Shown here in pieces: positions 7,401 through 60,700 of a stretch of DNA of 64,000 nt (position 1 is its first letter; each line of letters starts with the position of its first letter). The position numbers and the translations under genes are program-made. This DNA is from Amoebophrya sp. A120 (Eukaryota > Protista > Dinoflagellata): the NCBI GenBank assembly GCA_905178155.1, contig CAJINV010000002.1, positions 9,125,412-9,189,411 on the forward strand. Direction: 5' to 3'. The notes beneath the pieces were generated by a model, which saw only the letters and a program-made list of their open reading frames with translations, ran no database searches and had not been told where the DNA came from.

Positions 7401-9662
7401 AGTACCCGCTGATCGTGGATGTGACGAACTTCGTGTCCCACCCGGACATCCGCGGTTTGGTCTTCTTTTTGAACGAGATCAACGGCGGCCTGTTGAACCT
7501 CGTGTACGAAGTGATCCGGCAATACGACGGGTTCCACCAACTATGATAGTGGACAATTTTCATTTGTCCCTCGTACGCCTCGTTTTTTGCAGGGCAGTAG
7601 CAGCACCAGAAACAAGGTGTCGATTTTAGCTCTTGCATGAGAAATTCAGGTACAGACACCATTTGTAGTTTTCAGGTTTATTTAGAAGCGTTTGGCTTTG
7701 GCATGAACATGAAGGTAAGATGAGCAGTACCGGGGAGCAGGCAATTGTCCATTATCATACCGACTTGCCCTAGTTTCCGCCTTTGACGAGCAGACGACGG
7801 ATAAAATTTTGGACACGTTGAGCAAGTTCAAGGGTGAAGATTACTTCGAGAACCGTTACCGAGAGAAGCAGCCGCTGAAATCCTTCTTCCAACGCATTGT
7901 GTACAACGGCGATGTTGTAGTTGCGACTGGCGGGGAGCAGCAGCAGGAAGCCGCTTCACCGACAGAGGATTCGATGAAGGCTATGAATTTCAATTGCCTG
8001 TTCAGTTCCATTCTACTCGATTCCGACGCGGATCTGAAGTCTAGCAGCGCGATTTCCAGTTCCTCGTCCAGCAGCGACCACAGTGTCTTCAGCGCTGCCA
8101 GTGGCGGAACTGCCTCAGCGGGAGCCGGTTCTGCGGGGTCATCGTCGTCCTTTTTGAGCGTCGACGTTGGACAGCGGCAGCAACAAGCTGCACAACGAGA
8201 GCTGACCGAAAAAGCTGCGGCTTCTGCGTACCGGCGGCGCAGCAACAATTGCAAGCTGTACTTTCCGAAGAATGCGCCAAAGTGGAGGATCGGGGCGGAC
8301 AAGGCCATGCTGTTTGTCGACAATGAAGTGGTTGCCGACCAGGGGAAAAAGTTCGGCTTCAAACAGGTCTTCGACGTGCGCAACGACCAAAAGTACTTGC
8401 AACTGCTGAGGAAAAATACGGGAACAATCTCGACGATCAGCTCTAGCAGTCCTGCTATAATCGCAGCTCCCGTGTTGACCACGGGTCTGTCGAACCAAAA
8501 TATGATCACGCAGCTGTTGGAGAACCTGCACCGCGAGCGCGACGGCCAGCGGACCAAGCAGACGAAGAAAACCTTGGCGTTTGTCTTCGACATGGACGGG
8601 ACGCTGATCGACTCCATGCCGGTTTACTACCAGTTTATGGAAAAAGTTCTGGAAAAGTATTTCAGCGAAGATGCTACTCAAAATAAATCCAACTCCGCTG
8701 CTGGTGCTCAAAATGTTGAGCAGGCACAGTTGGCCGCGACTTCCAAAAGCCAAAGTTTCCAGAGTAAGAACAAGTATTACCCGAGTTTACAAGAATTTCT
8801 CACAGAGCTCGCGGGCATGGCGCCGGTGGACATCTGGCAAAAGGTGATCGACAAAAATTGCCAGCGGAAGAGCGAGCTTTGCAAACGTGGCCTGCCCTCG
8901 GCTGCGGAGCTTTTCGAAGAGGAGAAAAAGTCGTCGCCGAACCAGAGCCAGGTCCGAATCCCGCGGATCGACGTGGTTGCGGACTTCGTCCAGCGGCTGA
9001 ACGAGCTGAAAGAGCTGGCGCTGGAGCGGAAGAATGTGGACGTGGAGTTCAAGTTTGCGGTGGCCACGTCCAGTTCGTACGAAAAGGCGGAGAGGTACCT
9101 GAAACAAGCCCACCTGTTCCACCACTTCGACGTCGTGTTCGGGGGTGACGACGCCGAGCTGCAGTACCGCGTGGAAAGGCTGAAGCAGGTGGAACGAGCG
9201 GCCCCGGGCGCGTTCGACATCAACTTCGCGTTGGAGAAGAAGCAAATCCTGTGGCAGCTCGCCGCGGAAAAGCTCGGGGTTTCCACGAAGCAGTGCGTGG
9301 CCTTCGAGGACGCGGTGGTCGGGATGGAGGCGGCTTACCGCGTCGGGTACACCAAGGTGTTCGACGTGCGGAACGAGCGCAACTACCCGCACTACAGCGC
9401 GTTCGTGCCCTTTTTCGAAACCGAATACAAGCAAATGTTCCAGCGGCTGCGGGACGGATTCGTGGCCGAGAAGGAGGCCCTGGAAGGCCGGGAGTCGTTG
9501 AACGTTGTCGAGAAAAAGCAGCAGCTTGCACGCGCGGAGTTTTTCGACTTGAAGGTGGAAACGGTGGGCGAAGACAGTCTGCCGGCTCTCTTTCCTCAAG
9601 CGCTGGAGCGGCAACTGATCTTCGTCGAAGACTACCTGAAGGAGGGGGAGGAACGAAAATAA
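4475..9662 (+). CDS. HAD-superfamily (beta-PGM/CbbY-like) hydrolase with two tandem HAD domains and an N-terminal signal-peptide-like segment; multi-exon (could be two genes split near 7550-7790)
   Basis: Domain 1: FDCDGTLIHS (~5540), VASSA, KPSKELF, GFEDAQNG (6476-7546 ORF). Domain 2: FDMDGTLIDS, VATSS, AFEDAVVG (7809-9662 ORF). GT-AG introns near 4653-4883 and 5065-5219 join frames correctly. N-terminus MTKSGLLLLSAVCGFLSTTYAA is hydrophobic. Confidence 0.75.
6040..6614. repeat. Repeat-rich intronic insert in the HAD gene (possible MITE)
   Basis: Bounded by inverted TTATATAAG (6040) / CTTATATAA (6606-6614). It has two direct copies of GTCGCATTGCTCGCATT..GCTCGCAAATCGCGG (~6088, ~6564) and a TGCGACTC/GAGTCGCA hairpin. 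Confidence 0.4.
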
Positions 9663-10289: not shown

Positions 10290-13200
10290 AATTGTACGGC
10301 GCGCGTTGGGGTTCTGGAGAGCCCGGGCGGGAAGGCCTGCCCGAAGCTAGGCCCCGGGAATTCAGCCGGTTCGCCGCGGCCGCGATTCTCGGCGCGGCGG
10401 CGCGGCCCGGCTTTGAGTATATCGGCACGGCGAAGATCATTCCGCGGGCCCATTGCGGCAGCGGCCCCGGTCTTGGAAAGGTCCTGCAGCAAGAAGGCGG
10501 ACGCACTCGCCGAGTGGGGCCACGGGGCCCGCGAATTCGTGTTCTGGGACCCGAACAAAGACAGCGACTTGATGGGCCTGCCCGTGGACCGGGAAAAGGA
10601 GCCGGCCCCGGAGCGCGAGCGAGGGGGGCGGCTCCGGCTCAGCGACTTCGGGCGCGGCCCCTTGCAGGCTGGACGGCTCTGCAGCTTGCCGTGGTCATCG
10701 CCCACCTCAATGAATGGGGCGCAGCCACCGGAGCGGTGGGCCTCGCCCGGGTAGCCAAAAAAACCGGGGCCGCATTGGCCCGCCTTGCTCGGCGGCGGGG
10801 GCGGCAGAGAACATGGCCGTTGGGTGCCCAAAAGCCCGGGCATAAAGCACGTGGATGCTTTCGGGCGTCGCCGAAGGTATTCGCGCGAATTCGCAGGCAT
10901 GCCCGCAGGGAGTCGTGAGGAGTGCCCGCCGTCTTGGGGCGCTGTTAGTTTTTCTTTTCTCGCCGCCTCTTCAAATCTCGCCCGAGCATGATCGGAAAAG
11001 CCGGGGCACCCGCGAAAGCCGCGCCGCCCGGCAACGCCGGGCCTCCCCCGAAAGCCGGGCCCAGCGGGAAAGCCGGACCACCGGCGCCTTGCCCCGGAGG
11101 TTTTTTGAAAGCGAGGGGAGACGCAGACACTAGCGCGCGCGAGTTTTTCCACCGGGGGAGGATCGTCTTCATCGGCCGGGGCGGCGACGCTTCCATCTTA
11201 GCCGAAACCACGCGGCAGGCCAGGCGCTGCAGGCGCTCCCGGGGGACGACGCCCGGCCAACCCCACCGAAGCAAGGAAAGGTCACGCCGGGCATATCTCG
11301 CCCGAGCATGATCGGGGCCGCAAGGAAGAAGGCGGCAAGCCCCGGCCCGGCGGGCCGTTGCGTGCTTCCGTCCGGTTGGCAAAACCGTGCGCGCGCCGTG
11401 CCGCGCCGTGCCCGCCCCGCGCCGGGAGTGCCAGCGCGGGCGCTTCTTCGAGGGGGGAAGGCAAGGGGGGGGGCCGGCGGCCGGCGTATGGGCCAGGGGG
11501 CTGGGCTCCGCTCTTCCCCCGGCCTCCCGGCCAGACATGGTTCGGTTGGCCCCGCTTTGGTGGGCTTACGGACATCGCTCGGTGTCATTAGATGGCGCGA
11601 ACGTGGCCGCGCGCTCGCCGCATCCATCCATCGCTCGGCGAAGCCGATCCGTCGAAGCCAATGGCCGGCGCCCGTGCTTCCACTCACAAGATAGACGGGG
11701 ACTGGCGCTTTTCGCCATCATCGGGCTTTGAGGTGTTAGAACATCGCTCCATTGGGCCGGGCGCGTTGCTGCTTGCGTCGCTGTGGGACAGCGTCACGCT
11801 TGCGCATTCCTTCTTATTCAGCAATTAACAGAGCAATAAGGAGGATGCTTCTGCTCGCCCTCACGCTCGCCTACTCATAGTGGAGGCCATTCGCGTAGTG
11901 TTCGAAAAATTATTATATTTACTAGGGAAAGCAGTCCGGCCCCTGGCCAGTATAGTTAAAGCAAAAAGTTACAGACTGAAGGCTGCAGAATTAGGGCGGC
12001 TAGGCACAAAAAGCCCGCGCGTTGTCGTTCGTTCGAAAAATAATAAGAAACTGCGCGCCAAGATTTTCGTCCAAACGTTAAGTCAAAAAGTGCCGTCGGT
12101 GTCGTGCAACCGCGCTTCGGCGCGCAGCCCCATCCAAACGCTAAGCCAGGGGCCCATCGGTAACGGGCCCCCATCGGGCCGTGGCGCCCTCGCCTGGCCC
12201 GCTACCGATCCCTGCCGCCTGCCCGCCCGACCCGCGGCCGCCGTTCCCCCGCCCCCCATTCCCCTCCCCCGCCAGCTACTGGCCCCTGCCGCCTGCCTGC
12301 CCGGCCCCCCCCCCCGGCGGCCGAGGGGGGGGGAGGGGGGCGCGGCCCCCCCCCATTCCCCGCCCCCGCCAGCTGCCGCTCCCTGCCGCCTGCCTGCTTG
12401 CCCGCGGCGCCCGGCCCCCGGCCGCCGAAGAGGGGGGNNNNNNNNNNNNNNNNNNNNNNNNNNNNNNNNNNNNNNNNNNNNNNNNNNNNNNNNNNNNNNN
12501 NNNNNNNNNNNNNNNNNNNNNNNNNNNNNNNNNNNNNNNNNNNNNNNNNNNNNNNNNNNNNNNNNNNNNNNNNNNNNNNNNNNNNNNNNNNNNNNNNNNN
12601 NNNNNNNNNNNNNNNNNNNNNNNNNNNNNNNNNNNNNNNNNNNNNNNNNNNNNNNNNNNNNNNNNNNNNNNNNNNNNNNNNNNNNNNNNNNNNNNNNNNN
12701 NNNNNNNNNNNNNNNNNNNNNNNNNNNNNNNNNNNNNNNNNNNNNNNNNNNNNNNNNNNNNNNNNNNNNNNNNNNNNNNNNNNNNNNNNNNNNNNNNNNN
12801 NNNNNNNNNNNNNNNNNNNNNNNNNNNNNNNNNNNNNNNNNNNNNNNNNNNNNNNNNNNNNNNNNNNNNNNNNNNNNNNNNNNNNNNNNNNNNNNNNNNN
12901 NNNNNNNNNNNNNNNNNNNNNNNNNNNNNNNNNNNNNNNNNNNNNNNNNNNNNNNNNNNNNNNNNNNNNNNNNNNNNNNNNNNNNNNNNNNNNNNNNNNN
13001 NNNNNNNNNNNNNNNNNNNNNNNNNNNNNNNNNNNNNNNNNNNNNNNNNNNNNNNNNNNNNNNNNNNNNNNNNNNNNNNNNNNNNNNNNNNNNNNNNNNN
13101 NNNNNNNNNNNNNNNNNNNNNNNNNNNNNNNNNNNNNNNNNNNNNNNNNNNNNNNNNNNNNNNNNNNNNNNNNNNNNNNNNNNNNNNNNNNNNNNNNNNN

Positions 13201-13641
13201 NNNNNNNNNNNNNNNNNNNNNNNNNNNNNNNNNNNNNNNNNNNNNNNNNNNNNNNNNNNNNNNNNNNNNNNNNNNNNNNNNNNNNNNNNNNNNNNNNNNN
13301 NNNNNNNNNNNNNNNNNNNNNNNNNNNNNNNNNNNNNNNNNNNNNNNNNNNNNNNNNNNNNNNNNNNNNNNNNNNNNNNNNNNNNNNNNNNNNNNNNNNN
13401 NNNNNNNNNNNNNNNNNNNNNNNNNNNNNNCGGCCCCCGCCCGGCCCCCGCCCGGCCCCCCCGCGTGCCTCGCGCGTTACGCGCGCGCGCGTTACGCGAT
13501 GCGCAGCGCGTTACGCGCCCGCCTGTACGCGTTACGCGCGTGCGCGCATTACGCGCGCTCGCGCACGCGTTACCCGCGCGCGCGTAACGCCCGCGCGCGC
13601 GCGCGTCTTGAAATTTTTTGCCGTTTTTCTGTGGCCAGGGG
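10290..13641. repeat. Very GC-rich low-complexity/repeat region around the assembly gap
   Basis: GC is far above the flanks. Direct repeat CTCGCCCGAGCATGATCGG at ~10977 and ~11297; poly-C/G runs before the gap; CGCGCGTTA-like reiterations at 13470-13605. Confidence 0.55.
12438..13430. other. Assembly gap (993 N)
   Basis: Run of N. Confidence 1.
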
Positions 13642-42292: not shown

Positions 42293-42934
42293 GGTGATCA
42301 TGCAATATGATAGAGGAGGCTGCAGCTTAAGTATTTTCATTGTTCCCTGTGGCTGTCCCAATATGTCTGCTCCTGATCACTTTTCTGAAGATCTTTACAC
42401 TCTCCCCTCCCCCACAAACGCCTCTAGAAATAAAGATTACGTGCTGTTGGTTCGATCCACCATTCATCAAATATTCCTACTTACATTCTTCGTTCAATCA
42501 TTCAACTCAGCGTATGTTAAGGGAATCGTATCGCTCGTTTCACGCTTCTTTTTCGAAACTGCTATGAAAAAGTACACTTTTTGCCCTCGTCCTGTGGCTG
42601 TTCTGGTGGGTGCTGTCGAGATCCACGTGTTTCCTGGACCGCACTCAAGATGTCACAGGCACAGCTAGCATTCTTCGAACGGAGACATACATAATTTTGT
42701 ACACAAGTCTAATAATTAAAGCAACCTTTCCCCTTGCGACATGGAAAGTGGGTTGTCCTACAACATTTACTACACTCTTTTGCTCCTGTTCTTCTCTTCT
42801 GATCATGGTCTACAGTCCACTAATGTCGCGATGTAAAGCGAGTAATTGAGCGAAATTCCGGACGCAAAATTGCCCTTAGACCGCGATCGTCTCTTGTGTA
42901 GCTGGACGTTCAGTCTGATGCGAAAAATGCACCT

Positions 42935-45900
42935 ATGTCACAGCCCCCTCGAGTGGACGCCGAAATGACATCGGTACTGTTTCAAAAAATAATGAATATC
43001 GAGTGTTTATTTCAATCGATGTGTGAGCAAGGACTACAAGAAGGAACGTGTTTCCATCGACGGAAAAGAAATAAAGGATGGACGGCGTGGCGGAGCAGTT
43101 TGGAAAGGGTCTGGCAGACCTCGCGGCCCTACTGGAAACAAAGCTCGATGCGAAGCTGGCGGAGCATCTCGGTCGGTTCGAAGGCGAGATCTCGGGGCGG
43201 CTGGAAAAAACCGCGAAGGCGATAGCCGACCGAGAGCATGAGCAGCTGGAAATTTCGGTGCGCGGGTTTTTTAATTTGTTCATGTCTGTTTACTGAAATG
43301 GAACTGGTGTTGGGTGCTGGAAGAAGTTTTCCTCCTGTGCGTCGTACGTCCGGCGTTTCATGCGTGTAAACTGGTAGTCGTAGTATACATAGGTCCCATG
43401 TGCTGGACCTAAAAATTCTGCTCCTTGTCATAATGTGGGTGGCCGCGGAATTGAGTACTGAGTTCGAGGTATGTGCATTGACGTACTTTGTACCGTGCTA
43501 AGAAAAATCCAAGAAATTATCTCAATTAATTTACAACGTCCGCTGCCACAGCAACGCGCCATCGTGGACGAAGTGTTTGAGCCCCTGAAAGAAGACTTGG
43601 AGCAGACAAAGGAGGTGCTGAAGCAGGAGAGCATGCTGGTCGTGGAGAAGGTGTGTGAGAAGCTCGACAGTGTGCAGGCGGAGTATCAAATGTAAAAATG
43701 TCTGGGTCTGGAAGAATGCTTGTGATGCCGGTTTTCCATGACCCATGAGGTCTGGAATGCGAGACCCAGCATGACAGATTTTTGAGGTCTCTATCATGCC
43801 TTTCCTGCATGAGAAACTCCCTCTCAACTTGGTCAAAAGCGGACAGCTTTTGGTACTCACGCAACACAGATTTTTGCATCCTTCGGATTTAGCATGACAA
43901 GTTCAAAAAAGGGTCGTAAAAAAAGGGTCGTAAAAGATTAAAGGGTCGTAAAAAATATGGGAAAAAATCGGTCGTCGTTTTTCGTTCACAAGTCGGTACA
44001 TGATGTAGATGCATTCTAATGACCCTCTTCTGCGACGCGTGTTTTTCGTCATTGCCTGCGACTGGCTGTAAGTTGTGTATCAGGTTGTTGTATGGAAAAG
44101 CAGGCAGGAAACAATGAAAAAGAACAGGATGCGAGCGCCTCCTCGTTGAAGAGGAGGCGCATCCTTGAAGATGATTCCATTACCAAATAAAATAGCAGCT
44201 TTCTTTTTTTTTATTCTTTTGCTCTTTAAGGGTTTAGGTCTGAGGATTTTGAACAAGCGAGGACAAGCTCTTCCTGGCCTTTTTCAGCAACCAGCGCGCA
44301 AGACACCAGAGAGGAGCGCGACAAATCTAGTTGCCCTGGGTCGAGCACACACTCTCTTTGCAGGGTGTGTGTTGCTGATCTCGTTTTTACATGATGGACA
44401 CTATACACAGGGAAGAAGCAGACTGTTCTCTGGGCCATTGCGTCAGTGGATCGTGGGAGACTTGTTGCAGTTTTCAAAGAAAAACAACTCTGCTGCTAGT
44501 CAAGCATGAGAAGCCAGAAGCAATGCGCTTCAGTTTCTATTTTGATAGGTATGTAATACAGGTGGGGGGTGTGGACCTATCGGTCAAACAAGCACACTAC
44601 TCGGTATAAAATTAGCAATTCATAACGATGCAACAAATGATGAGAGCGATCAAGGACCTAATAAAGTGATGACGTTCTACACCAAGAATGACAACACTAA
44701 AAACACGAACCACGAACATCAGGCCCCTGATTATCCTAGTGATTAGCCTCGCAGTAATTATGTCTTGAGCTACCCTGATAGGGTGGATTTATACTCCACA
44801 GCACCGGTGTTCAGAGCACGGGACCACATAGGTTATCAGCCTCTGACTCACTTTAAAAGTTTACTAGTACTAGAATTCAGTCGCGTAGAACTAGAATTGT
44901 TTTGGTTTTATCGATTTACCGTAGGGGTAATTTGTTTACACGAGTTAAAACTTAAAAACTTGCACAGGTTTTAGTAGAAGACAATTTTTAATTTTAAACC
45001 AACAAGCCAAAAATCAAAAATGGCGACCACAGCTCCAACGTCGAAGCCGCTGGAGATGAAGCTGAGCAAGCTTACCCACGTTCTCGGGAAAGGATGAAGA
45101 TTATGCAGATTATCGCTTCCAGCTACGCGCCTACCTGGGTGGCCTTGATCTTTTGAAACCGCTGGACGGACCGGCATCGGCGGAGCAATCGCTGAAAATT
45201 TTTACGGTTCTGGCGAACGGGGTCAAGGGCCAAGGGATCAAGGAGATCCGCGGGGCGAAAGAAGGAGACGGGGAACACGCCTGGCAGCTGCTGGAGACGC
45301 GTTTTAACGCGAAAACCGGGGCACGAAAGTGCAGCCTGGTGCGGGAGTTGTTGACGTCCAAGCCGGAAAACAATTCCCCGGGCGCGGTTGAGTCGTGGAT
45401 CAATCGCAAAATCGAATTGGTGCTGCTGCTTGCCAACATGTCCGTGACTCTCGAAGAGCTTGCGGGCTATGCGGTGGTCGATTTTTTGCCGAACGAACTC
45501 AAGTCGGTGGCAGATGTTTTGACGCATACCGACATGAAAATTGCCAACGTCAAGCCCATCGCGATTGAAAAAGCGCACGCGGTCAAGCGGGCGAAGCAGC
45601 AACCGGCGGCAGCGCTGATCACGAAGGAGAAAGGCGACAAGGGGAAAGGCAAACACGGCAAAGGATACTGGTGGAAGCAGGGCGGTTGGGCGAAAAATAA
45701 CGACTGGGATACGAAGCAGAACAAAAATTCCGGGTGCTATGTCTGTGGTTCGGAATCGCACTACGCTCGGGATTGCCCGAAGAAAGCTAGCAAGGGGGCC
45801 AAGGGTAAGGACGACGCCAAAAACGGAAAAGGCGGGAACAACAACAACAGGGCCTACCTTGTTGTGGAAGATTTGTGACTGTCTCAAGATCAAGATGAAG

Positions 45901-48900
45901 TTTTAGAAAGTCGAAATCCCGATGGTATGATGAAGAGTAGTGCGAGATTTGTCGTTGATTCCGCTGCGGAGAAGAACATAACCACCACTACGGCGGGGGT
46001 TTTGGTTGAAAGTTTTACGAACGAAAAACAGGGAATCGAAGGCGTCGATGGCAGTGTGGTGAAAGCAGAAAAAGTTTATCTGAAAGAAAATTTCATGGGT
46101 TTGAAAAACGCACTACATTCCGAAGAACTGACCCACAACCTGCTGAGCATTTCGGAGCAGATTGGCGAGGGGTGCAGATTTGTTTTTGGACCGGACGGCT
46201 GTTACGCAGTTAGCCCGGGCGGGGAAAGATACGAGCTGGAGAGGCGTGGAGGCCTATTCACGATGGAAATCCAAGAGAAAGACAAGCGCGCGCAGGCGTT
46301 TAAAGTTTCGGAGCAGCGAAACCACGAGCGGCGGGGGCATTTTCACAACAAAGCCGGACGGGTGAAATTTTGCCACGCTTGTGCAGCACAGAAGGGGAAA
46401 CGCAAACCGGTCAAGCAGAAACGGCCGGAAAAGTATGCGGCTACGAAGTTCGGCGAGCTGGTGGCGGGCGATTTAGTCGGGCCGCTTCCGGAGTCGCACA
46501 ACGAGCACAGATACTTCCTGACCTTGGTGGACGATGCTACGGGGTGGCTTGAGGTCTATCCCATAAAAAGCAAAACGGCGGACGAAGTTGCGACAGGGCT
46601 CGCGACTTGGAGAAGACTCAATGGGCATTTCAAAACTTTCAGGTCCGACAATGGCCTCGAGTTTTGTAATGACTTCCTGCGTTCTCTGTTTTTGAAGTGG
46701 GGAACGACGCACACCAGGGCGGCACCATACTCACCGAACCAAAACGGAAAATGCGAACGCTTCAACCAAACGGCGACGGAGTGCGCGCGGGCACTCTTGC
46801 ACAACGTCGACCAGAAACTTTTGGCCGGCGGCGGTCAAGTGCGCGGCGTATCTGTACAACAGGGCAGAACGCAGACGGGAACGGGCGCCGTACTACCTTC
46901 GGTGGAAACGAAGCCCGACCTACGGACACTTGAAAAAGTTTGGATGCGTAGCATATGCCAGGACTCCGGTGCGGAATAAGATGGATGCCAAGTTTTTGAA
47001 GGGTGTTTTTGTTGGATATTCTGAAGATTCACCGGCGTACCGGGTTGCCGTTGTCGCGAAGGACAAGCGGGGCCGCAAGTCGATTGCGGTAATCACATCG
47101 AGAGATGTGAAATTCAACGAGGGCGAACTCGTTGGAAACTTGGTAGCTGGGTCGGTTTTCACAAACGAGGAGTCAGTTTTGGAGGGGTTTGGAGGAAAGG
47201 AAGAAGACAATGTCCAACAGGTCAAGCACGTGGAGACAGCGTTCTTCCATCCAGTCAACGCGATGGAAGTTGAGGGAGAAGATGCGGAATGCGCGGAGCC
47301 ACGACCGGAGAGCGAAATCGTCGACGAAGAGGACGATCTATTTGCAGACGACAGGCCGCAAACACGGGCGGACGACGAAAAGCAGTCCGCAGCCATTGAA
47401 GGAATTCAGTGGGCAGAAGCAGAAAAGCAGGAGGAGAGAGAAGCAAAACGCCAGAAAACGGGACAGGGCGAAACCCTGCCGGACCTCGACGACGGGGACG
47501 AATTCGGTGGGTTCCAGGTTCCAGAACTCGGGGGGGTGCCAGCTGTTCAGCAACAGCAGGAACAGCAGCAACAGCCTGCTCCGATGGACGTCGATTTTGA
47601 AAAATCGAGCGACGAAGAAATGGCGGAAACAGAGGAAGAAGAGGAGGAGGAAGAACTTGACGAGCGAGAAGTGCGGCGGCTACGGCGGCACAAGGCTCGG
47701 GACAAGTTTCTTCAAGAAGAAGCCAAGAAAAAGGGGAAGAAGAAACAGCGGCGGCAGCAGGTAGACAAAACTTTCGGAGCAAAACGCGCGAAAGCTTTTG
47801 TTACGGTGGTACCGAAAAAGGAAGCGCTCAAGGGTCCGGAACAAGAAACGTGGCGGGCCGCGATGAACGCAGAGAAATCCGGTCTGGAAAAGTTGGATGG
47901 CTGGGAAGTGGTTCAACCGGGAACGATTCCGAAGGGCGCAAAAATCCTACCCATGTTCAACATTTTCGAGTTGAAAAAGGACGGACGACGCAAATGCCGA
48001 CTAGTATGCTGCGGAAACCATCAAGAATTGGATCTGCAGTCGGTATTTAGCCCGGCGGTGAGTCAAACCACGCTTCGGCTTTTGGCTATGCGGATGGCGA
48101 AAGGCGATGACAGCTGCGGGCTGGACATCGCTCAAGCTTTTCCCAATGCGCCGCTGGACGAAGGTGAAGAAATCTACTGCAAGCTACCGGAGGAGATGGG
48201 CGGCGATCTGATTAAACTCAGAAAGGCTCTCTACGGGCTTCGCGTATCTCCAAGGCGGTGGAGTTCTCACTTCGCAAGGGAACTAGAAAAAATGGGATGG
48301 ATACGATCGGAATCAGATGCGGGGATTGTTTTGGAAAGAGTGCGAAGACGGCGAGAAGATTTTTATATCTGTATACGTCGACGACGGCCTATTAGTGGGC
48401 AAAACGCACCTGATTCAGACTGAACGAGAAAAAATTCTGCAACGCTTCAAGGGGCGGAAGATCGATCCAGTTCGATTGGACGATGGGACTATGGTCATGG
48501 AGTATCTTGGATTCAAAATCTATCGTCTTCCTACCGGGGCGATTCAGATCGGTTTGGACTACAATAAGATGCTGAAAAAGTTCGACTTCTTACCGGGAGC
48601 ACGCAGGCACACCGATCAAGAAATCCTTGACGCAAACAGGGTCGAAAAGTGCAGACTTGAAGTCTTATCGATCTTTGGTCGGGAACTTGGCATGGCTGCA
48701 GAACGCGCGACCCGAAATCGCCTACGCAGTAAAAGAAGTATCCCGATACATGTCAGCACCGAGCGAAGAAGCAGAAGAAGCGGCGAGGCATCTTGGTTCT
48801 TATCTTTCATCGACAGAAGATCACCGACTCACCTTTTTAGACACAGACTGGAGCACCTTGGTCATGCATACGGACTCGGATTTTGCAAGCGAAATTCCGG

Positions 48901-51900
48901 GGCGGAAAAGCACGACGGGCGTCATGATCAGCATGGGCTCAAGTCACCTCAAGTGGACCAGCGCTACACAGAAACTAGTGGCGACCAGTACGTGTGAGGC
49001 CGAGCATCTTGCTCTCTTCCAAGGGCTGAAAGAGCTAACTTGGATGAAGAAGCTGGCGAGAGAAGTTTTAGGAGTTGATCCTCAGGTCGAGATTAGGTGT
49101 GACAACGTTGCAACCATCCAGCTAACGCAGGAAAGTACAGCAACGGGACGCACTAAGCATTTCGATGTCAAGATGTGTTACGTGGAAGAAACTCTAGATA
49201 GGCACGGCGCTACCGTGCAGTACGTGCATACGAACGAAAACCGCTCCGATTTTCTAACGAAAGCACTAGGACCGACTAAGTTCAAGGAAGTTATATCTTT
49301 TCTTTATCGGCAGTAGCATGCGAGTTTTGTAGATTTTATTTGAGGTAGAAAAATTGCTGATCGTGGACAAGCATCGAGAATTGCAAAAAGAAGATCTATG
49401 CACTATCGAAAAACAGCAAGACAGACAAGATCTATTTATACACTGGATGTGGCATTTGTAATGCAGATTTCTTACTTTTTACAGAATTCACAATGAAAGT
49501 TCTGTGATATCTATCGAAACAGCACTACAGTACAACGAAGAACTCTCTAAACAGCCTTACGAATGAGAAGTAAACTACCATGCAACTTTTTACAAAAAGA
49601 CGCTCGAAATCGGGTATACCACCGGCCGAGCAAAAGATCTAGATGTAAAAATTTTATCAAAAGATCATAGAGAAGCTTACTCTTGCCGGCGGTAGTAGTA
49701 GTAGATTAGATTTTGCAAAAACTAATCTAGGGGGGGTAGTGTGGACCTATCGGTCAAACAAGCACACTACTCGGTATAAAATTAGCAACTCAGAACGATG
49801 CAGCAAATGATGAGAGCGATCAAGGACCTAATAAAGTGATGACGTTCTACACCAAGAATGACAACACTAAAAACACGAACCACGAACATCAGGCCCCTGA
49901 TTATCCTAGTGATTAGCCTCGCAGTAATTATGTCTTGAGCTACCCTGATCGGGTGAATTTATACTCCGCAGCGCCGGCGTTCAGAGCACGGGACCACAGG
50001 GGGAGGTCGCAATCTGTTTCAAAGCTGCCTTGTGTGAAAAATAGACCCAGGGTAAAAGGATAGTAGTATCAAATGAAAAGCAGTAACTGCACAAAGTTAC
50101 TGCTTTTTTCCATAAGTATAGGCCGGCCAAGGTGCAGCAGCAAGCGGACGGGAAAAAGGTGGTGAAGTGAGTATGCTCTGCACTTGCCGGGAAGACCGCC
50201 GAGACGCTTTGCGTGGGAAGCTTTTTGTCGTGAGTTGCTTAAGTGCAACGGCTTCGCGTCGAGGCACATGGCTTCAGTTTTATATGTACGGCTTGGGCAT
50301 CAACCCCGGGAGGATCGTTTTGTATGGTAGAGGAATCGGTCTAAGGAAAGGGAGCTTGTTGTTGGAGGTGTGATCATCAAGCGTTTGGCAAGTAGATTCA
50401 GAACAAGACAGACCTTGCGTTCCCTTCATCCAGTGAGGCCTGACCAGGAAGGGGAGCGCGCGGGGCCCGGACAGGGCGCGGGAGGTGCTGCGCCTCTGGT
50501 CTGAATCTGCTTGGCACACTGTGATGCCTTGCACTTTTATCCGCGTACCAGCCTAATTCTTATCCCCCTAGCTGGCGCATCCAACAGCGAGACCCTGAGC
50601 AGAACCATTTTGCGAATGAGTAAGATTTTTTTTCTAGTAGTCAGGAAAGTGGACCATTGTCAGGAAAGCAATGCGAGTCCGATTCTCTTGTTGCTGCTAT
50701 GTATGCTTTGTATGTTTCCTGCCAGCTTGTAGTCGTCATGAAGCACTTCGTTTTGCCGCTCTTCGTTTGTTTCGTCCAAGGAGCTAGATCGCAAATTCGT
50801 GCGCTCCTTCGCCTTCGAAAAGTTAGATCTTCCCTGTGCCCGGTGTTGTCCCAAGTAGATTTAGATCTCTACCCTTTTACAGTCTTGCGGTCTTCGCCCT
50901 TAGTCTTACTTGCCCCATGTCTTGTAGCGCTAGACGTTCCGCGGACCCCGCGTCCTCGCAGGGGCTTCTCATTTTTTTCCGCCTAGCCAGCGGGTTGTTG
51001 CTTGGGGGGGGTAATAGCTTTGCATGAGAACTTTCTATGCATGCTTTATTCCGTTTCCGGCTTTGCATGAAAAAAATTTATTGGTTTTACTACAGCACCC
51101 TGCAGACTATCTGCTTTGACTGCGTAGAAGCAACCGGTGTAGTTTTTCCTAGCGCACTAGTTTCGCCCGCTGCTACCGGGTCAGTAGTTAGAAAAATTCA
51201 GGTTGCGCGGTCTCTAAATGGTCCGCGGGGGTGGCTTAAGTTTTGACTGGGTGACTTGTTAGCTCTAGAAAAAGTTCGCTTTTGTATTTGCGAAAGCAAA
51301 AACTTTGCATGGCAATAAATTCAGGCTCAGCTCAGCCGGTGTAGATAGTATCCCCCCGCACTGCTATGCCCCCAAACACATCTTTCCGGACGCTGCAAGG
51401 TGAAGAGATGTGGCGTGTGCCGCTGCTACCGGCTCGACACGTAAAGGAAAACGAATCCGCGCGCTCGGCTTGGTAGCTACCCCCATGCCGTTCGGGTTTT
51501 AGCTGCCACTGGCGTCATTGATCGGCGTTGCCAATATCCCCATCCCGATGATTTCCATCTCTACGTTTGTGTATGGTGCGTAGGAGCTTGCTCCTTTTTT
51601 GTGCCGCGGTGTCGGAGGTTTTGCAGCATGCACGCACAAACAGTATTCTTGGAAGCGGAGGGGGGGCGCGGGACCCCCATCAAGTCGCCGCGGCGCGAAG
51701 CCGCAAATCCTTGGGCCACGTCTACCACCAGAAGTATTCCGCCCGGGGGCCGCTCCTTGAACCACCAGAAGTATTCCGCCCGGGGGCCGCTCCATGAACC
51801 TTGAGCCCCGCACTGCTATCCCCATTCCACATTGTTCCGGAGGCTGCGAGATGGAACCATGTGGCGTGTGCCGCTGCTACCGGCTCGACACGAAAAAACG

Positions 51901-54900
51901 AATCCGCGCGCTCGGCGCGGTAGATACCCCCCCGCCGTTCGGGTTTTAGCTGCCACTGGCGTCATAAATTGCGTTCTACAATCTCCTCCTGATGATTTTC
52001 ATTTGTTCTTTTTGTGTATGGTGCGTGAGAGCTTGCACTCATTTTGGCCACGTTGTGGTAGTTTTGCAGCATGCACGCACAAACGGGATTCTTGAAAGCG
52101 GAGGGTGGGGGGCGAGACCCCCATTTAGTCGCCGCGGCGCGAAGCCGCAAATCTCGCGCTCACGTCCACCATCAGAAGTGTTCCAGCACGGGGCCGCTCC
52201 ATGAATTGAATTGAGTCCACCGCCAAGTAGTCGGTTTGAGCGGTTTCACGGCGTCAGCGACCGTTTTCCGGCCTATCGGCCTGCTTCCGAACCTGCTCAC
52301 TCTCCGCCACCCAAGGTCGACATTTGCGGTTATCCCGACGTTGCTGCAGACCCGATAGCTACCGATAGCTCCGACGTGTCGAATTCACATGGCCACCGGT
52401 GAAAGCTTCCCGCTCGTCCTCAACCCGCTGCTGCGGCGCCCTGTCCCTGGTCCTCTACTTACCCCCCGCAGCTCCATCTCGAACTTGCTGATGCCGTTTT
52501 CCGGAAAAGACTAGTTTATGGTGCTGGTGGTCAAAAACCTCGTTCTCCACCTGCTGCTTCGCGAAGCGCCATGGATGCAAAGGGGAATTTTCCCACATTC
52601 CGCTTTGCGCATGGTACGCACGGGAAGCAGCACATACGGGGGACAAGGGGCGCGACTGCCAGCGCCCGCGGACCGGGGCGGGGTTCAACGGCCCCAGCTT
52701 TCCCGCTGCTGCACTACCCGGGCCAGATCACACGACCTTCCTGTACTTCGGCTACCTCAAGTTCCCACTCGTCCGGCGGACTGTGCCTGTACTTCGCGGC
52801 CGTTTTGAGTGGTGTTTTTACGCTCCGCCCTACTCGACTCCCCGTATGCGGTCGGACACCTCCAGCTTGCTGTGCGCCACGTGGCGAGCCGGTTCCAACT
52901 ACAAGTCGTCCGCCGACACGGGGCAGAACTTCGATTATCACTGACGGCGGGGCAGATAGAACTACTTCATCACTTCCACCGGAGGGCTCAACGGTCCCGC
53001 CCCTTCCCCCCTCGTTCGTTCGTAGTACTTCGTTGTAAAAAATTAAAAGTAGTGCTTTGTCGTAAGCGAATAGAGTACTTCTACAACCGTTTTACCAGCC
53101 GCAGGTTTGCATCTGCGGCTACTGCTACTCTGCAAACGCCCGGTGTATTTTTCAAAAAAAAACATGATCTGCCTCGCTGCTACCGGGGTTAGGACGTACC
53201 TCATTCAGGGCGGGCGGTAGCTAAATGCAGACCTGTGCGGGCTTATGTTTTCTGAAGCGCGCACACAGTCACTAGCGTAACGCAGTAGCTTAATCATTTC
53301 TGACCGTTTTACGAACTTCGTCAAAAAATCCGGGGCTGCTTCCTCCCGCAGTAAATAGAAGGGTTTAGGTGTTTAGGGTTTTCCGATTCAGAAAAAAAAG
53401 TTCTTCGTCATCGTGGAAAAAACTGGATCGGACGTGTGCCGCTGCTACCGGCTCGACACGTAGAAAACGAATTTCGCGCGTTGTGCGGGAGTAGCTACCC
53501 CTCCCCTGCTTCGGGTTGTAGTTGCCACGGGCGTCATTGATTGCGGTCGACAATATCCTTTCCCGATGATTTCCATCTCTACGTTTGTGTATGGTGAATA
53601 GGAGCTTGCTCCTTGTTGTGCCGCGGTGTCGGAGGTTTTGCAGCATTCACGCACAAACAGTATTTTTGGAAGCGGAGGGGGGGTGCGGGACCCCCATCAA
53701 GTCGTCGCGGCGCGAAGCCGCAAATCCCTGGTTTTCGTTCACCATCAGAAGTGTTCAACCGGCGGGGCGCTCCACTGAAACTGAAACTGAGTCCAGTCCT
53801 CCCTTGGCAAAAAAAAAAAAAAAAAATTTAGCCTGACAAGTTCTGATCTTCCAGACCCAGACATTTTCGCATTTGATACGGAGCTGGCGAAGACTAAGAC
53901 CAAGCACGACGAGGAGCTGCGGTTGTTGCAGAGCGAGTTGGTGTATCAACTGTAAAAATGTCTGGGTCTGGAAGAATCCAACTTGTCATGCTGATTTTGG
54001 ATTCTAAAAAAATCTGTATTGCATGAGCAGCAAAGAGAGTCCAAGTTTTGCTACACGGAAAGAGCGTTTGCCATGCGGTATAGGCATCAGGAAGCCGTCA
54101 CAAAATCTGTGATGCTAGGGCATGCATCACAGACATCAGGAGTCATGCAAAATGTGCATGACAAACCGAAACCTGGCAATCTTCCAGACCCAGACACTTT
54201 TACATTTGATATGGTGATGCTGGGCAAGCGCCAGCAGGAGGCGGCGCAGGAAGCGGAAAAGGGCCGCAAGACTGCGAACCAGGCCGAAGTCGAGCAGTAC
54301 AAGGCCGTGATCGCGCAGCAGGCCAAGCAGATAGAAGGTTTGGAGAAAGGTTTCGCGCTGTCCCACGAAAAGCTGAAGTCGGAGCTCGAAGCCAAGTTTC
54401 TGCGCCAGGACGCCGAGGTTCGGCACCAGATCGCGAGCTCGGTCGAAACCGTATCTTCCGGTGTTTTCAGCCTCAGGGAGGAGCAAAAGGAGGCGAAGCG
54501 ACTGTTCGAGGAACACGTGCAGACCGTGCTAGCCGAGAAGCTGGAGGAGAAGAGCAACAGCGTACGTAACAAACCAGTCGATGCCGCGGGGTTGTCCGAG
54601 CGACAGCGGGAGCACGTCCTGCAGTTGGTGAAGGAACTCAAGCTGGAAGAAGTGCTGGAACGGAAAATTCACAGCGAACTGGATCTGTTGCAGGAGTCGG
54701 TCGAGTATCAAATGTAAAAATGTCTGGGTCTGTAAACTTGTCATGCTAAATCTGAAGCATGCAAAAATCTCTGTTGCATGATTACCAAAAGTCGTCCAGT
54801 TTTGACCAAGTCGGGAGGGAGATTCTCATGCAGGATAGGCATGAGAGAGATCGCACAGAATCTGTCATGCTAGGTCCTGCATTCCAGACCTCATGGGTCA

Positions 54901-56687
54901 TGGAAAAGCTGCATGACAAGTCGCGCACTCTTCCAGACCCAGACACTTGCATTTGATATCGAGTTGGAGGCCAGCATGCAGAAAAATCGCGTCGATGCGC
55001 TGGAGCGGCTGGTGCGAAACAGGAAATCCTCTGCAAGCGGCACTGCATCAACATCATCCTCGAATAAAGCGCTGCTGGGAGCTGCAGCTCCAGGTGATAA
55101 TCAAGAGCAGGAATTTTTGTCTGAGCCCGACCGGCAGCTCGCGCTTGTCAGCAGGAGCGCCGCAACTGCAGCGAACGGGGGCAACTCCACCGTGCAGGAT
55201 GCAAAGGCGCTGTTGGAAAGCACGCTGGCCGTGCGGGAGGCAAAAGTGGCTCTGCAAAACGAAGGGGCAAGAATAAACACGAAGCTGCTGCAATTCGACG
55301 AGAAAGAGGCGAGACTGCGGAAGGAAGTAGAGTCCCTGCGAGCGGAGTTTCAACGGGTACATTTGATGTTTTTTACTATCCGCAATGCTGCGACGGTGTT
55401 TTGCGTTTGCCTGCTGCACTGCTGACGAGAAAATCAACACTGCATCGATCGGTACTTCTATATTCGTTTGACGATATCGTGGTCTGGTCACCGAAGACAA
55501 AATGAAAATTTATGATAAAACGTTCTTCATCATCATCTTCAGCTCCAATCCGGGTCGGACCAGATGAGTCGCACAGTGGCGGAGTTGCAGCGCCTTGGCG
55601 AAACGAGGATCAAAGACTTGCAAACCAAAGTGCAGCAAGCTGTGACCCCGCGGTACCCGGGGATGCCGCCTCCCGGGCCCGCAGGCGGAGTGAATAGTTC
55701 GACGTCGCAACAAACTACAAGCCAGGTGGCACAGCAAGCACCCGCCGCGAGCGGGACGACCGCGGCCGTGAACCAAACGCAAACACAAACGCAGCAGATC
55801 GTAGCTGCCGCGGGGGATCCGCTGAGCAACACGGCAGCCGGCAATCGGCAAATCACCATGCAGCAGACGACGACCTACAGCACGAATTACAACGTCGGGG
55901 CCGCACCAGTTGTGGGCTACACCCCAGCAGGGCACTTAGTACCCACACTGCACCAGCCCTTTCTCGTCCGCCCGCCCGCCTATCGTACAGAAAACGCAGC
56001 TAGCATCATGTCATGTGTAGTGTAAAATTTTGCATGCGAACAGCCAGTTCATTCTCATTGTTTCCGGTTCTCAGTATGGCGGGGATTCATTTTTAGAAAG
56101 AGCGTCCTCCCACGAAATTATTTTTGTCTTGCAGTGCTTGCTTCCATGTGTGTCCATCGTACTTACGTGCAATTGATGATAAGTAAGTATGTTGGTGTTC
56201 ATCTTCAGCTTGACGCTGTGCTATTTCTTTTCTCTACGATACTCCGGGAGCGCAACCGGCGACTACAGTTTCTGACGCGGATTACCTGCAGGCCCTGTAC
56301 CGAAACCTGGAACTGCAGACGCCGCAGGTCCCGCAACTCCAGCTCCTGCTTGGGGACGTGGAGCAGAAACAGGACTACGCGAATGATCTGAATGTCCAAA
56401 CAACAAACTACAACAGCAGGAGCCCAGGCACTACTACCAGTGCGGTGCTTGGTTATTTGAATAAAGGGGAGGGACTTCAGGAATCGAATTTGGAAAGAAA
56501 ACCAGCGGGTGTAGTTTTGCCGAATGCAACTACGACTAAGACCAACTACGACTACGAAGTAGTAAACCAGAATCCGTACGTGATGAATACGACACAGACT
56601 GCGTTGCAGCCGGTCCGCGGTCCACAGTCGTACTTGCAGCAGACCCCGGGTGGCGCAGACGACACCGGCGGCTGCGGAGTGCAGTGA
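42935..56687 (+). CDS. Coiled-coil protein gene interrupted by three introners (one 10.2 kb) and canonical introns
   Basis: Heptad-rich exons ~43078-43257, 43552-43683, 53884-53943, 54217-54705, 54964-~55356, ~55543-55982, ~56240-56687. Across introners it reads in frame: VQAE|LAKTKTKHDEELRLLQSELV|MLGKRQQ...ESVE|LEASMQK. The start is uncertain. Confidence 0.75.
44570..44828 (+). repeat. 5' LTR of copia
   Basis: TGTGGACC...GGACCACA; about 8 substitutions versus the 3' LTR, counted by eye. Confidence 0.95.
45020..45878 (+). pseudogene. gag: Copia gag (frameshift near the 5' end)
   Basis: ATG 45020; LPTFSGKDEDYADYRFQLRAYL in the shifted frame; zinc knuckle CYVCGSESHYARDC; TGA at 45876-45878. 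Confidence 0.85.
45879..49316 (+). pseudogene. pol: Copia pol (protease, integrase, reverse transcriptase, RNase H) split by ~3 frameshifts
   Basis: PR FVVDSAA; IN HERRGH..CHAC, DLVGP, RSDNGLEF, QNGKCERFN, KGVFVGY; RT LDIAQAF, LRKALYGL, YVDD; RH TDSDFA, STCEAE, CDN, TKHFDVK, SDFLTKAL. Confidence 0.92.
49740..49998 (+). repeat. 3' LTR of copia
   Basis: Direct repeat of 44570-44828, preceded by the PPT and followed by the GGGGG TSD. Confidence 0.95.
51400..53790 (+). repeat. Three diverged ~350-400-bp direct repeats inside the poly(A) insertion
   Basis: GTGTGCCGCTGCTACCGGCTCGACACG...CGCGAAGCCGCAAATC...CACCA(T)CAGAAGT units start at ~51410, ~51860 and ~53430. Confidence 0.8.
53944..54211. mobile_element. 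Introner-like element, family A (268 bp)
   Basis: Family A TIRs; TSD TGGTG; in-frame TAA inside; removal restores ELV|MLGK. Confidence 0.92.
54706..54958. mobile_element. Introner-like element, family A (253 bp)
   Basis: Family A TIRs; TSD TCGAG; removal restores ESVE|LEAS. Confidence 0.92.
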
Positions 56688-57707: not shown

Positions 57708-60700
57708 ATGACAGGTATCAAGGCCGTTGTGCCGGACGCAGTTCCGGAGATGCCCCAGTGGAAGACCACTGGGGAGCACATGTCCATTGCTGGCACCCTA
57801 ACCCTGGATACGTCCAAGAAGTGCTTTTCCGTACCTGGCGTGACGGACACGCCCACGTCGAGCACGACAAGTACCGCGACACCAGGAACGGCGGAGCTTT
57901 CGATCAACGACGTGTTTTTTGTCAAAGAAGGCAGTTTTGAGGACCACCGGGGCGACTACGTGAACGTGCCCGTGCCGTTTCCCGTGCTGGAAGGCGGGGT
58001 GGCTGCTTCGAAGAAGAACGTCGCCCGGGGGTTCCACTGTTCGCCCTTCCCGAAGGTGGTGGGGTGTCTAACCGGAAAAATGTATGACGTGTTACTGGAT
58101 CTACGGACGGCGAGCACGACGTTCGGAAAAATCTTCACCTGCACGTTGCTGCCGAAAAAGGGTATAATCTATAATTTCAGCTGTGATGGTCATGGTGAGG
58201 ATAAGCATAAGAAGAGCTCGGCTTCACCGCCTGTGGTGCTCGGATCTGTTCCTGCCTCTTTTGTAGCCATGATGTACGTAGTCAGTGATCATCAGCATGT
58301 CATTTCTGTCAACATTCTCGCTGCCGTTGCTATTCTTGATTACGAGGAACGAGTATAGTAAAAGCAGAAGCACACGGAAAAAAAAATCGACATCAAAACA
58401 GGCTACCTCTACGTGCCGGCCGGGGTGGCGCACGGGTACGTGGCCCTGGAGGATGACACGTTGACGCAGTACTACAAGGGGGATTTTTTTGATCCCGCGA
58501 AAGAGATCAACGTGAACATGGAAAGCACCGAATTCACCATTTTTGGCACCGCCTCCTTCCCGCTTAAGGCTGAAGACTTGATCTTCTCCGAGAAGGACAA
58601 GGCGCTGCCGAAGTTCGAGGACGTTTACGCGGCCTGTCTGGTCCCGAAAGAGGAGCAAAAACCGAAGAAGGTCTGGTACGCGCTATTACAGTGAAAAATG
58701 CCCCCACCCCCAAAGTTGCAAAAATGTGTGATGCGAAGTTTCCAAATGAAAACCTTTTGCCATGCATGAAAGGAGTATGAATCTTTCTGATGCAGAGTCT
58801 AGGCGTGTATCGCATCGCTTGCATGACAAGCGGTAAGCTTGGTGGAGTCTTCTGCAATACAAATTTTTGCTGTTTACGATTGGAAACCTGTGATGCTGAT
58901 AGATGCAAGAGGGCGAATGTTTCATTTGGAAAGGTTTGCAACACAAATGCTCCCAAGTAATTCGGGGTCGGGGGCATTTTTCATTGTAATACGCGCCCCA
59001 CAAGTTCGAGTCGTACGGGGACGAAGAGTATGAAATGCAAAAGTGTCTGGGTCTGGAAACTTGTAATGCAAGTCAGCCAATAACAAATGCAGTGTAATGC
59101 GCCGCCAAGCATGACAAGTTGCTTCGTGGTTCTGTGCTGCGTATTCCGCATGAGAAACTGCGTTTTTGCATCACAGGCGAGAGAGGCTGTTTGTGGCCAC
59201 GCAATACAGATTTAAGGGCCATGCCAGATCAGCATGACAAATCTCGCAATCTTCCAGACCCAGACACTTTTGCAGTTGATAAAGAGATGATGGCGGTCTC
59301 GCGGTGTCTGCGCGCAGGCTGGCTCGCGCCGGGCCCTATGGATTGCAAAAATGTCTGGGTCTGGAAGATTGCCAGGTTTGTCATGCAGGTTTTCCATAAC
59401 ACATGAGGTCTGGCATGTAGGACATAGCATGACAGATTCTGCGAAACCTTTCCAATGCCTATCCTGCATGAGAAACTGCCTCTCGATTAGCTCAAAAGTG
59501 CACAATTTTTGGCAATCATGCAACACAGTTTTTTGCCTGATTCAGATTTAGCATTACAAGTTGCATTCTTCCAGACCCAGACATTTTTACAGTTGATAGG
59601 CCCGCTGACCTCCCTGTTCCAGCAGAAGGTGTCCAAGTACTTCGGGAAGAAGTACGGCCTGTACGTATCCTGAGTAAAAACGTACCCACACCAGAGTTGT
59701 AATGCAGATTTGCAAAGACAGGAAGACTTGTATTGCGCATCTCCATGAGAGCCATTTCCAATCGTGTTGTGGAATTTGTGATGCTGTGAACAGGATGAGC
59801 AGATGAATCTGTGATGCGGCTGCACTTGTTAACCTGCACTACATTGCATAGTGCAACTTGTCATGCGTGACTCACAAAGCTCCTAGGTTTGTGTTGCAAA
59901 ATCCCCATCCTGGCTCTGGTGTGGGTACGTTTTTACTCAGGATAGTACGTGAATTCCGGGTCCTCGGCGAACCTGATCGGCATGGCCATGTGCGATATGC
60001 CGGCCGGCAGCGAGATCATCACGCCCGCCTGCACCTTCAGCACGGTGTTGGCGCCCATTGTGCAGCTGGGGTTCAAACCCGTGTTTGTCGACGTGGAGCT
60101 GAACAGCTACGTGCCCACGCTGGAAGCGATCAAGAACGCCATCACGGAGAAGACCAAAATGCTGATGATCCCGAATTTGGTGGGGTCGAAGATCGACTGG
60201 AAGGAGATGCGGCGGATCGTGGAGGAGGACCTGAAACGGGACGACATCATTCTCTTCGAGGACTCCCTATCAAATGTAAAAATGTCTGGGTCTGGAAGAA
60301 TGCAAGTTTGTCATGCTTGTCTGCCATGACTCTTAAATCTGTCATGCACATTACCAAAGAGCCCCACTTTTCTGTCATGGAGAAACGTAGTTTGTCTTTG
60401 TCATGCAGAATAGGCAACACCTAGAAGCTCAGAAACTTGTCATGCTGAGCCAGCAATTGTCGCCTCCTCATGATACGCCACACAGCATCACAAGTTTCCA
60501 GACCCAGACGTTTTTCGGTTTGATACTCCTGCGACTGCATGACGTACACGGAGGAGTCCGACATCTCCGCGATCTCCTTCTACGCCTCCCACATCATGAC
60601 GGGCGGTGGCATGGGCGGCATGATCATGATGAACACGGAGAAGCTGCTGAACAAAGCCTTTCAGTACCGGGACTGGGGCCGCATCGGCAACAACGACGAG

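Follow-up and report, generated by a model that had tools for sequence, protein, structure and literature searches.

Introners of the type described in Amoebophrya sp. A120 have TAT-N7-AAA inverted repeats, direct repeats of 3-5 nt at their boundaries and non-canonical ends; they occur in many copies without a transposase, and their removal is supported by RNA (Farhat et al., 2021, PMC7789003). Introns of 40-1000 bp were analysed in that study, with a mean of 240 nt in A120, and the word "nested" is absent from its main text. Larger families have since been listed for A120 (Gozashti et al., 2025, PMC12130899). Family 38 is an introner of about 808 bp with terminal inverted repeats (TIRs), a 5-bp target-site duplication (TSD), TA termini and homology to copia and gypsy elements; its mechanism was classed as unknown. 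Among 56 of the 58 A120 rows of Dataset S2 in the same paper, family 3 has matches to copia reverse transcriptase (RT) and integrase and an end coordinate of 16,127, family 9 has RT matches (23,826) and family 135, all non-canonical, reaches 18,823; the large end coordinates are probably alignment columns. In the parts of the paper compared, these families are taken not for nested insertions but for introner types that are unknown or non-long-terminal-repeat (non-LTR). The nonconventional introns of euglenids have TIR-paired ends, TSD-like repeats and lengths of up to several thousand nucleotides (PMC11282704). Targeting of one transposable element by another has been described in Xenopus, where Tx1 non-LTR retrotransposons target Tx1d DNA transposons, and insertion of Tourist into Tourist has been reported (PMC6719617). 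Here we describe a locus in a 64,000-nt stretch of A120 DNA (contig CAJINV010000002.1, positions 9,125,412 to 9,189,411 of the forward strand; hereafter the window) where an introner in an expressed gene contains a poly(A)-tailed insert, which in turn contains a Ty1/copia element. The locus is an RNA-supported non-canonical intron of 10.2 kb. Its parts (Amoebophrya-type introners, kilobase non-canonical introns and insertion of one element into another by targeting) are known; the combination was not found in the literature searched, and neither an introner-targeting retroelement nor a 10-kb spliced introner was found in a search on introners, nested insertions and Amoebophrya retrotransposons and splicing, a search whose scope left subscription papers aside.

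An intron of about 10,200 nt without normal splice signals is removed exactly in an assembled transcript. In run X3 (sample S2; a spliced-RNA type, the RNA label being guessed; no run is recorded as RNA), contig record 9 (2,622 nt, depth 117.8) joins 43678 to 53879 and skips 10,200 nt, with five letters that fit either side. The same contig carries the joints 43256>43551 (GT-AG), 53938>54212, 54700>54959 and 55355>55542 (GT-AG) and resumes at 56246; the four introners and two GT-AG introns of the host gene are all removed. It was marked as spliced RNA because the canonical introns are lost. None of the five joints was present in the DNA-type run X1. None of the seven cut registers at the 10.2-kb intron gives GT..AG. 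Use of the canonical GT at 43683 with the AG at 53883 was tried and rejected, as it shifts the frame. The spliced host frame is 710 codons long. From the letters, the first-pass annotation had joined the flanking exons as VQAE|LAKTKT with an open frame downstream, and the contig carries exactly that join between exons 2 and 3. Since an RNA-type contig holds the exact join and the GT-AG introns are out as well, excision is independent of the usual size of about 250 nt, as that annotation had proposed. The features of the locus, all on the + strand, are as follows.

43034..43257, +, host exon 1; the X3 contig starts at 43034, the ATG is at 43078 and the GT..AG joint is 43256>43551
43552..43683, +, host exon 2; its last five letters are the left CGGAG (43679-43683)
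43684..43904, +, introner portion to the left of the insert, 221 nt, with the TIR at 43684-43715; its final stretch, 43887-43904, is the insert's left TSD copy, with GCATGACAA intact
43905..44569, +, poly(A) insert, 5' part, starting with a 14-nt tandem repeat (43905-43955); the junction contig 43855-44031 shows 0 differences
44570..49998, +, Ty1/copia element, full-length in structure yet broken, with LTRs at 44570-44828 and 49740-49998 and the TSD GGGGG
50004..53826, +, poly(A) insert, 3' part, 3.8 kb without a known domain, with repeats of about 350-410 nt (51354-51761, 51806-52219, 53433-53795) and an 18-A tail (53809-53826)
53826..53878, +, insert TSD, right copy (53826-53843), in which the motif is altered to GCCTGAC, then the introner's final 35 nt and the right TIR (53847-53878)
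53879..53943, +, right CGGAG and host exon 3 (53884-53943); joint 43678>53879, 10,200 nt skipped
53944..54211, +, ordinary introner next to exon 3, 268 nt, with the TSD TGGTG; for the 43684 arm, its 3' arm is a slightly better pairing partner than the true one
54217..54705, +, host exon 4, present in the X3 contig
54706..54958, +, sibling introner in the opposite orientation to the split introner, 253 nt, with the TSD TCGAG
54964..56687, +, host exons 5-7 to the stop codon, with a GT-AG intron near 55357-55542 and an introner-type intron at 55980-56245

The contigs of the runs were compared with the window over positions 42700-56200. The five listed exon pieces of the X3 contig (1,675 nt) show 0 differences from the window, where about 12.6 differences at some 405 synonymous sites would be expected had the lineage of the RNA source split off before the copia insertion (from an LTR distance of 3.2%, assuming a neutral clock and no conversion). 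Judged from these letters, the RNA source is of the same genotype as the window. A transcript from an allele with the short introner only, or an insert misplaced by the assembly, is a highly improbable explanation: although the RNA (S2) and DNA (S1) samples differ and no record spans the locus, the lack of exonic differences contrasts with an insertion aged by 3.2% LTR divergence. In X1 the interior of the copia element and the left junction are at single-copy depth equal to the flanks (43.5 for the interior against 44-46, and 52.7 for the 177-nt contig 43855-44031, which spans the junction of introner and insert with 0 differences), and the perfectly nested TSDs restore a colinear introner. 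The composite region contains no Ns. Runs X4 and X5, compared over 43820-44720 only, had no coverage on 43913-44720, and the raw RNA runs X21 and X22 covered none of the host gene's exons, their reads coming only from other introner copies.

Reverse transcriptases switch templates at short repeats, and ciliates excise DNA segments. That the join was made at the level of cDNA, by a template switch at the 5-nt repeats, or of DNA, by ciliate-like excision in some stage, is scarcely credible here: a strong stem with short direct repeats is the usual setting of the template-switching artefact, but X3 has no depth over most of the intron and abundant unspliced template is not evident, four introners are out in the same contig, and the X1 DNA shows none of the joints. 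In Giardia the halves of split introns are joined in trans. Joining of the exons in trans at this locus (transcription ending in the insert or an LTR and restarting, with the halves meeting via TIR pairing), or a stepwise removal with the inner pieces first, is very unlikely, even though the insert is sense-oriented, ends in an A tail and contains four AATAAA sites as well as two LTRs, and a continuous pre-mRNA cannot be seen from contigs. An extra promoter would be needed, no internal joint for X3 is present among the 15 joints listed, and the best internal TIR partner for the 5' arm reaches only about -25 kcal/mol.

Several observations weigh against a single spliced intron at this locus. 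The RNA join is one contig of one run with a guessed label; contigs are blind to the difference between cis and trans splicing and between one step and several; and 50 weaker joints lie outside the listing. On the DNA side, the locus is not bridged by any single contig record, and the listed contig pieces contain neither the right junction nor either LTR junction.

The outer element has the features of an A120-type introner. Its TIRs (43684-43715 and 53847-53878) begin TAT-N7-AAA and are identical but for 2 of 32 positions, and CGGAG is duplicated on both outer sides of the pair, at ends 10,195 bp apart, just as the first-pass annotation had it. Relative to the introners of Farhat et al. (PMC7789003), it shares the ends, the boundary direct repeat, the non-canonical removal and the membership of a repeated family without transposase (none among 20 frames scanned); it differs in being 10,200 nt long with two nested retroelements. 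The typical length of about 240 nt, which is that paper's average and not a criterion, is matched only by the 256-nt residual, the full span being 10,195 nt. That residual introner (221 + 35 = 256 nt after removal of the insert, the length claimed earlier) aligns end-to-end with the reverse complement of the sibling 54706-54958, with 218 identities, 29 mismatches and 16 gap columns (scored on a 257-nt version), and the other seven family A members in the window are 245-268 nt long. Eight left and eight right family arms are present in the window; seven left arms, including that at 43684, match the 5-mer of their partner exactly and the eighth matches at 4/5, whereas cross pairs match at no more than 3/5. 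The 43684/53878 pair is the sole TIR pair over 450 nt apart with an exact direct repeat within the window. The introner at 55980-56245 belongs to a further TAT..ATA family, in which the direct repeats have diverged (CCGCC vs CTCCG), and the direct repeats of the introners at 60268-60525 and 7542-7759 are one base apart.

The insert was correctly called poly(A)-tailed with an 18-bp TSD: the copies at 43887-43904 and 53826-53843 are 18 nt long with one mismatch, the second following an 18-A tail. Without the copia element the insert is 4.5 kb long and non-coding. An exact 27-nt core pattern matched four loci in metagenome_contigs (L001-L004, all JACKZZ01 contigs, the window locus not among them) and had 0 matches in viral_contigs and genome_contigs. 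These loci yield five additional core-bearing tails, six with that of the window; a poly(A) run without the core (L004:7974), also not near an introner end, was excluded. The tails comprise 12-21 A, and TSDs of 16-24 nt were identified at four of the six, none being found at the other two. The inserts (0.92, 0.94, 4.5 and 5.6 kb) have a common 3' core and variable 5' ends, and more copies are present in X1/X2. Such a 3' poly(A) with long TSDs of variable length, in dispersed copies with variable 5' ends, characterises a non-autonomous non-LTR retro-insertion. No Pfam match to an RT or endonuclease was detected in the scanned frames, 13 of the window insert and four of the L003 insert (a subset of all frames), and an autonomous long interspersed nuclear element (LINE) was therefore rejected for want of RT and endonuclease reading frames in the frames scanned. 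A short interspersed nuclear element was rejected as well, since a tRNA-, 5S- or 7SL-derived head was not found (ARAGORN, 0 genes; Rfam, one chance-level match, E 0.88). The 400-nt repeat of the insert showed no unusual structure (z -0.03); its consensus has two-sided changes at 12 of 104 pairs, which with only three copies is not evidence of structure. Telomere-like TTTAG runs occurred at chance frequency. At the 3' ends of the family (window 53770-53826 and the L001-L004 tails), TGAA-type short tandem repeats are followed by 10-25 variable bases and the poly(A), and this variable piece differs between copies.

The copia element had been called complete, which is true of its structure and not of its coding capacity. 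Its LTRs (259 nt, TG..CA) differ at 8 of 259 positions (distance 3.2%), and gag, integrase and RT domains follow in copia order, as in other Ty1/copia elements with a 5-bp TSD; the coding region, on the other hand, is divided into five frames with a separate start and an in-frame stop. A 5,019-nt X1 DNA contig (44750-49768) is single-copy and matches the copia interior with 0 differences, and the breaks are therefore real. Apart from being broken and single-copy in its interior, the window copy departs from ordinary Ty1/copia only in its location. The order of nesting, with the copia element entering after the insert, is fixed because copia-free copies of the insert exist: two DNA contigs pass from 44569 into letters like those from 50004 onward. 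Other genomic copies of the LTR (44570-44828) have different flanks and are probably solo LTRs; one copy is transcribed in X3.

The tails of the poly(A) family lie at similar distances from introner ends: 52 nt in the window, 53 nt in L001, 66 nt in L002, and 56 and 44 nt for the two tails of L003 (L003a and L003b), the L004 tail not being in an introner. The automatic direct-repeat test missed L002 and L003b, both of which were classed via alignment and arm match. In a uniform test, four of the five non-window tails passed, compared with 1.1-2.4% of 20,000 random positions (P for at least four of five <=2e-6, or about 1e-4 with the null rate tripled for selection). Four of the six targets (window, L001, L002, L003a) begin 3-5 nt before GCAT[CG]ACAA, in each case at the subterminal copy of the motif. 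This motif is common to several introner families, often about 40-60 nt inside their ends, and is a candidate protein-binding site. Three introner families carry inserts, with differing TSDs. L001:7571-8777 is a family A introner of 1,207 nt (direct repeat GTGGT) whose 0.92-kb insert copy has a TSD of about 22 nt and whose flanks join in one open frame; it matches the window introner in reverse (233 identities over 263 nt), which places its insert at the opposite introner end. L003a (L003:2495-8455) is a 5,961-nt composite in an introner of a family other than A, with the direct repeat GTTTC, a 5.6-kb insert and flanks that join in frame; its host exon matches Pkinase (E 7.4e-6 for a 49-aa piece, under the curated cut-off). 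The L001 and L003 composites are known from DNA letters alone. The L002 introner is of the same family as L003a (70% identity), and the L003b tail adjoins the end of a third introner family, its left side lying beyond the locus. Where the host strand could be read (three cases), the insert was in sense at the intron's 3' end in 3/3, too few to weigh.

The first-pass annotation had suggested that introners act as safe havens for other transposons. This idea is supported and can be extended, as four of five tails from another assembly lie near introner ends, pointing to targeting over mere tolerance. The family likely prefers a subterminal introner site, and it is a probable introner-targeting retroelement family. 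The absence of any targeting, with insertion at random or at any GCAT[CG]ACAA and selection keeping the copies inside introners, is unlikely, but it has several points in its favour. The DNA is compact and gene-dense; the motif is introner-wide, with 82 matches in 114 kb (window and L001-L004) where about 1.7 are expected, and a simple pattern places only 26 of the 82 subterminally; and L004 and probably one X1/X2 copy lie outside introner ends. Selection, in contrast, is not obviously partial to positions 44-66 nt from the end of a 250-320-nt element, and all four motif-type targets are subterminal, with P still about 1e-4 when the null rate is tripled. Against targeting it must be noted that the sample is small (four loci from one assembly), that the 35-75-nt test window was set after the tails had been seen, and that both introner ends with a perfect direct repeat are present in only three of six cases. 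The direct repeat of L002 has diverged and its ends are weak (-21.6 kcal/mol), L003b is without a left end and without the motif, L004 is outside introners, and the contig of an X1/X2 insert copy runs 1.2 kb upstream unbroken and unlike an introner flank; an RT/endonuclease partner was not found in the insert frames scanned (window and L003).

The closest described parallel is Tx1 (PMC6719617), which resembles the poly(A) family in that a retroelement uses a DNA transposon as a safe haven, and possibly in a reproducible site within it, five of six tails lying 44-66 nt inside introner ends and four of six at the motif, in a small sample. The target in Amoebophrya differs in being a spliced intron in coding exons; several introner families are hit, and the copies seen are non-coding. 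Euglenid introns (PMC11282704) share the paired TIRs, the TSD-like repeats, the large size and an unknown excision mechanism, and differ in lineage and end sequences; nested retroelements are unmentioned in the text compared. The 10.2-kb length is real; so large a size has more precedent than the first-pass annotation implied, given the kilobase non-canonical introns already known in euglenids and the large A120 families listed. Going by the text compared, a target site, nesting of TSDs and splice evidence at the level of the locus are given only for the window locus and not for the A120 families of PMC12130899. The matches to copia and RT in the large Dataset S2 families suggest nested elements that passed unremarked within annotated introns. 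It is an evenly balanced question whether the retroelement family is truly specialised on introners, nicking the subterminal GCAT[CG]ACAA some 50 nt inward of the downstream end and landing cheaply in coding exons since splicing would need only paired ends with up to 10 kb between them, and whether many multi-kilobase A120 "retroelement introners" are nested composites.

It was also suggested that introners could carry kilobase cargo, which is not supported: the junction is single-copy, flanks differ between insert copies, and the L001 insert is at the opposite end. A mobile composite, with introner ends carrying the inner elements as Pack-type cargo, would fit the intact TIRs and TSD and has a possible counterpart in A120 family 38, whose TIR introner measures about 0.8 kb and has retroelement-like reading frames in five copies (PMC12130899). 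We nevertheless regard such a unit as most improbable, as the composite has one copy by depth in the DNA contigs, the other insert copy has a different 5' flank, L001 (opposite end, different TSD) is an independent insertion, and mutation has altered the subterminal motif at the right end. Of the two, a dead end is more likely than a carrier of cargo.

Based on these results, we consider it quite probable that an introner in an expressed 710-codon gene was enlarged to 10.2 kb by a poly(A) insert and then a copia element and is spliced out with one TSD copy, likely via its paired 32-nt ends, that the insert family likely prefers its site, and that the composite is likely a dead end. A non-autonomous TIR element of about 256 nt would have inserted first with a 5-nt TSD, the structure of which is seen. 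A 4.5-kb non-coding poly(A) RNA was then likely copied in at a GCATGACAA motif that lies 52 nt inward of the 3' end, sparing the TIRs; the tail and TSD point to target-primed reverse transcription by a LINE acting in trans. The copia element entered this insert afterwards and decayed, an order established by the copia-free copies. The poly(A) family would thus land where the host already splices.

For removal, the two 32-nt ends probably pair as an RNA stem, in which case the size of the loop would be irrelevant. The earlier claim that non-canonical excision pairs ends over 10 kb holds for splicing across 10.2 kb (X3); an RNA stem in cis is a plausible mechanism for it rather than an observed one. 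The computed energy of the end duplex is -49.4 kcal/mol, against -24.7 for the best rival of the 5' arm within the intron. The 3' arm of the next introner, 333 nt further on, would pair with the 5' arm at -52.6 kcal/mol, and the whole left introner body has its antisense counterpart in the sibling, 830 nt downstream (-326.6 kcal/mol). Skipping of exon 3, or of exons 3 and 4, keeps the frame, and the main X3 contig retains both. Because the better-pairing arm is left unused although skipping would be in frame, it is probably the order of synthesis or a direct-repeat match that decides the partner; splicing likely takes whichever complementary 3' arm is made first, or the arm with the matching direct repeat, and not the most stable one. 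The subterminal motif is dispensable for removal at the 3' end, since the right TSD copy has lost it and the introner is still removed; it more likely serves transposition. At the introner 55980-56245, the cut can lie only 1-2 nt ahead of the 5' TAT, given the transcript join, and the splice register can be fixed there as it rarely can; the same register at the 10.2-kb introner would give GT..GA or AG..GG, on the strength of one case only.

The locus is a natural experiment on the cutting of non-canonical introns in a lineage where U1 small nuclear RNA was not detected: removal remains exact with a loop 40 times larger, and a mutated 3' subterminal motif is no block. The targeting pattern raises the possibility of a second-order parasite that shelters via splicing and offers an alternative reading of published retroelement-bearing introner families. 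Genes of this kind are missed where annotation caps intron size. The host gene (43078-56687), with its four introners and two canonical introns, encodes a 710-aa orphan, and no homologue of exon 4 was found in large database searches. Elsewhere in the window, very GC-rich low-complexity sequence was observed on both sides of a 993-N gap (12300-13560).

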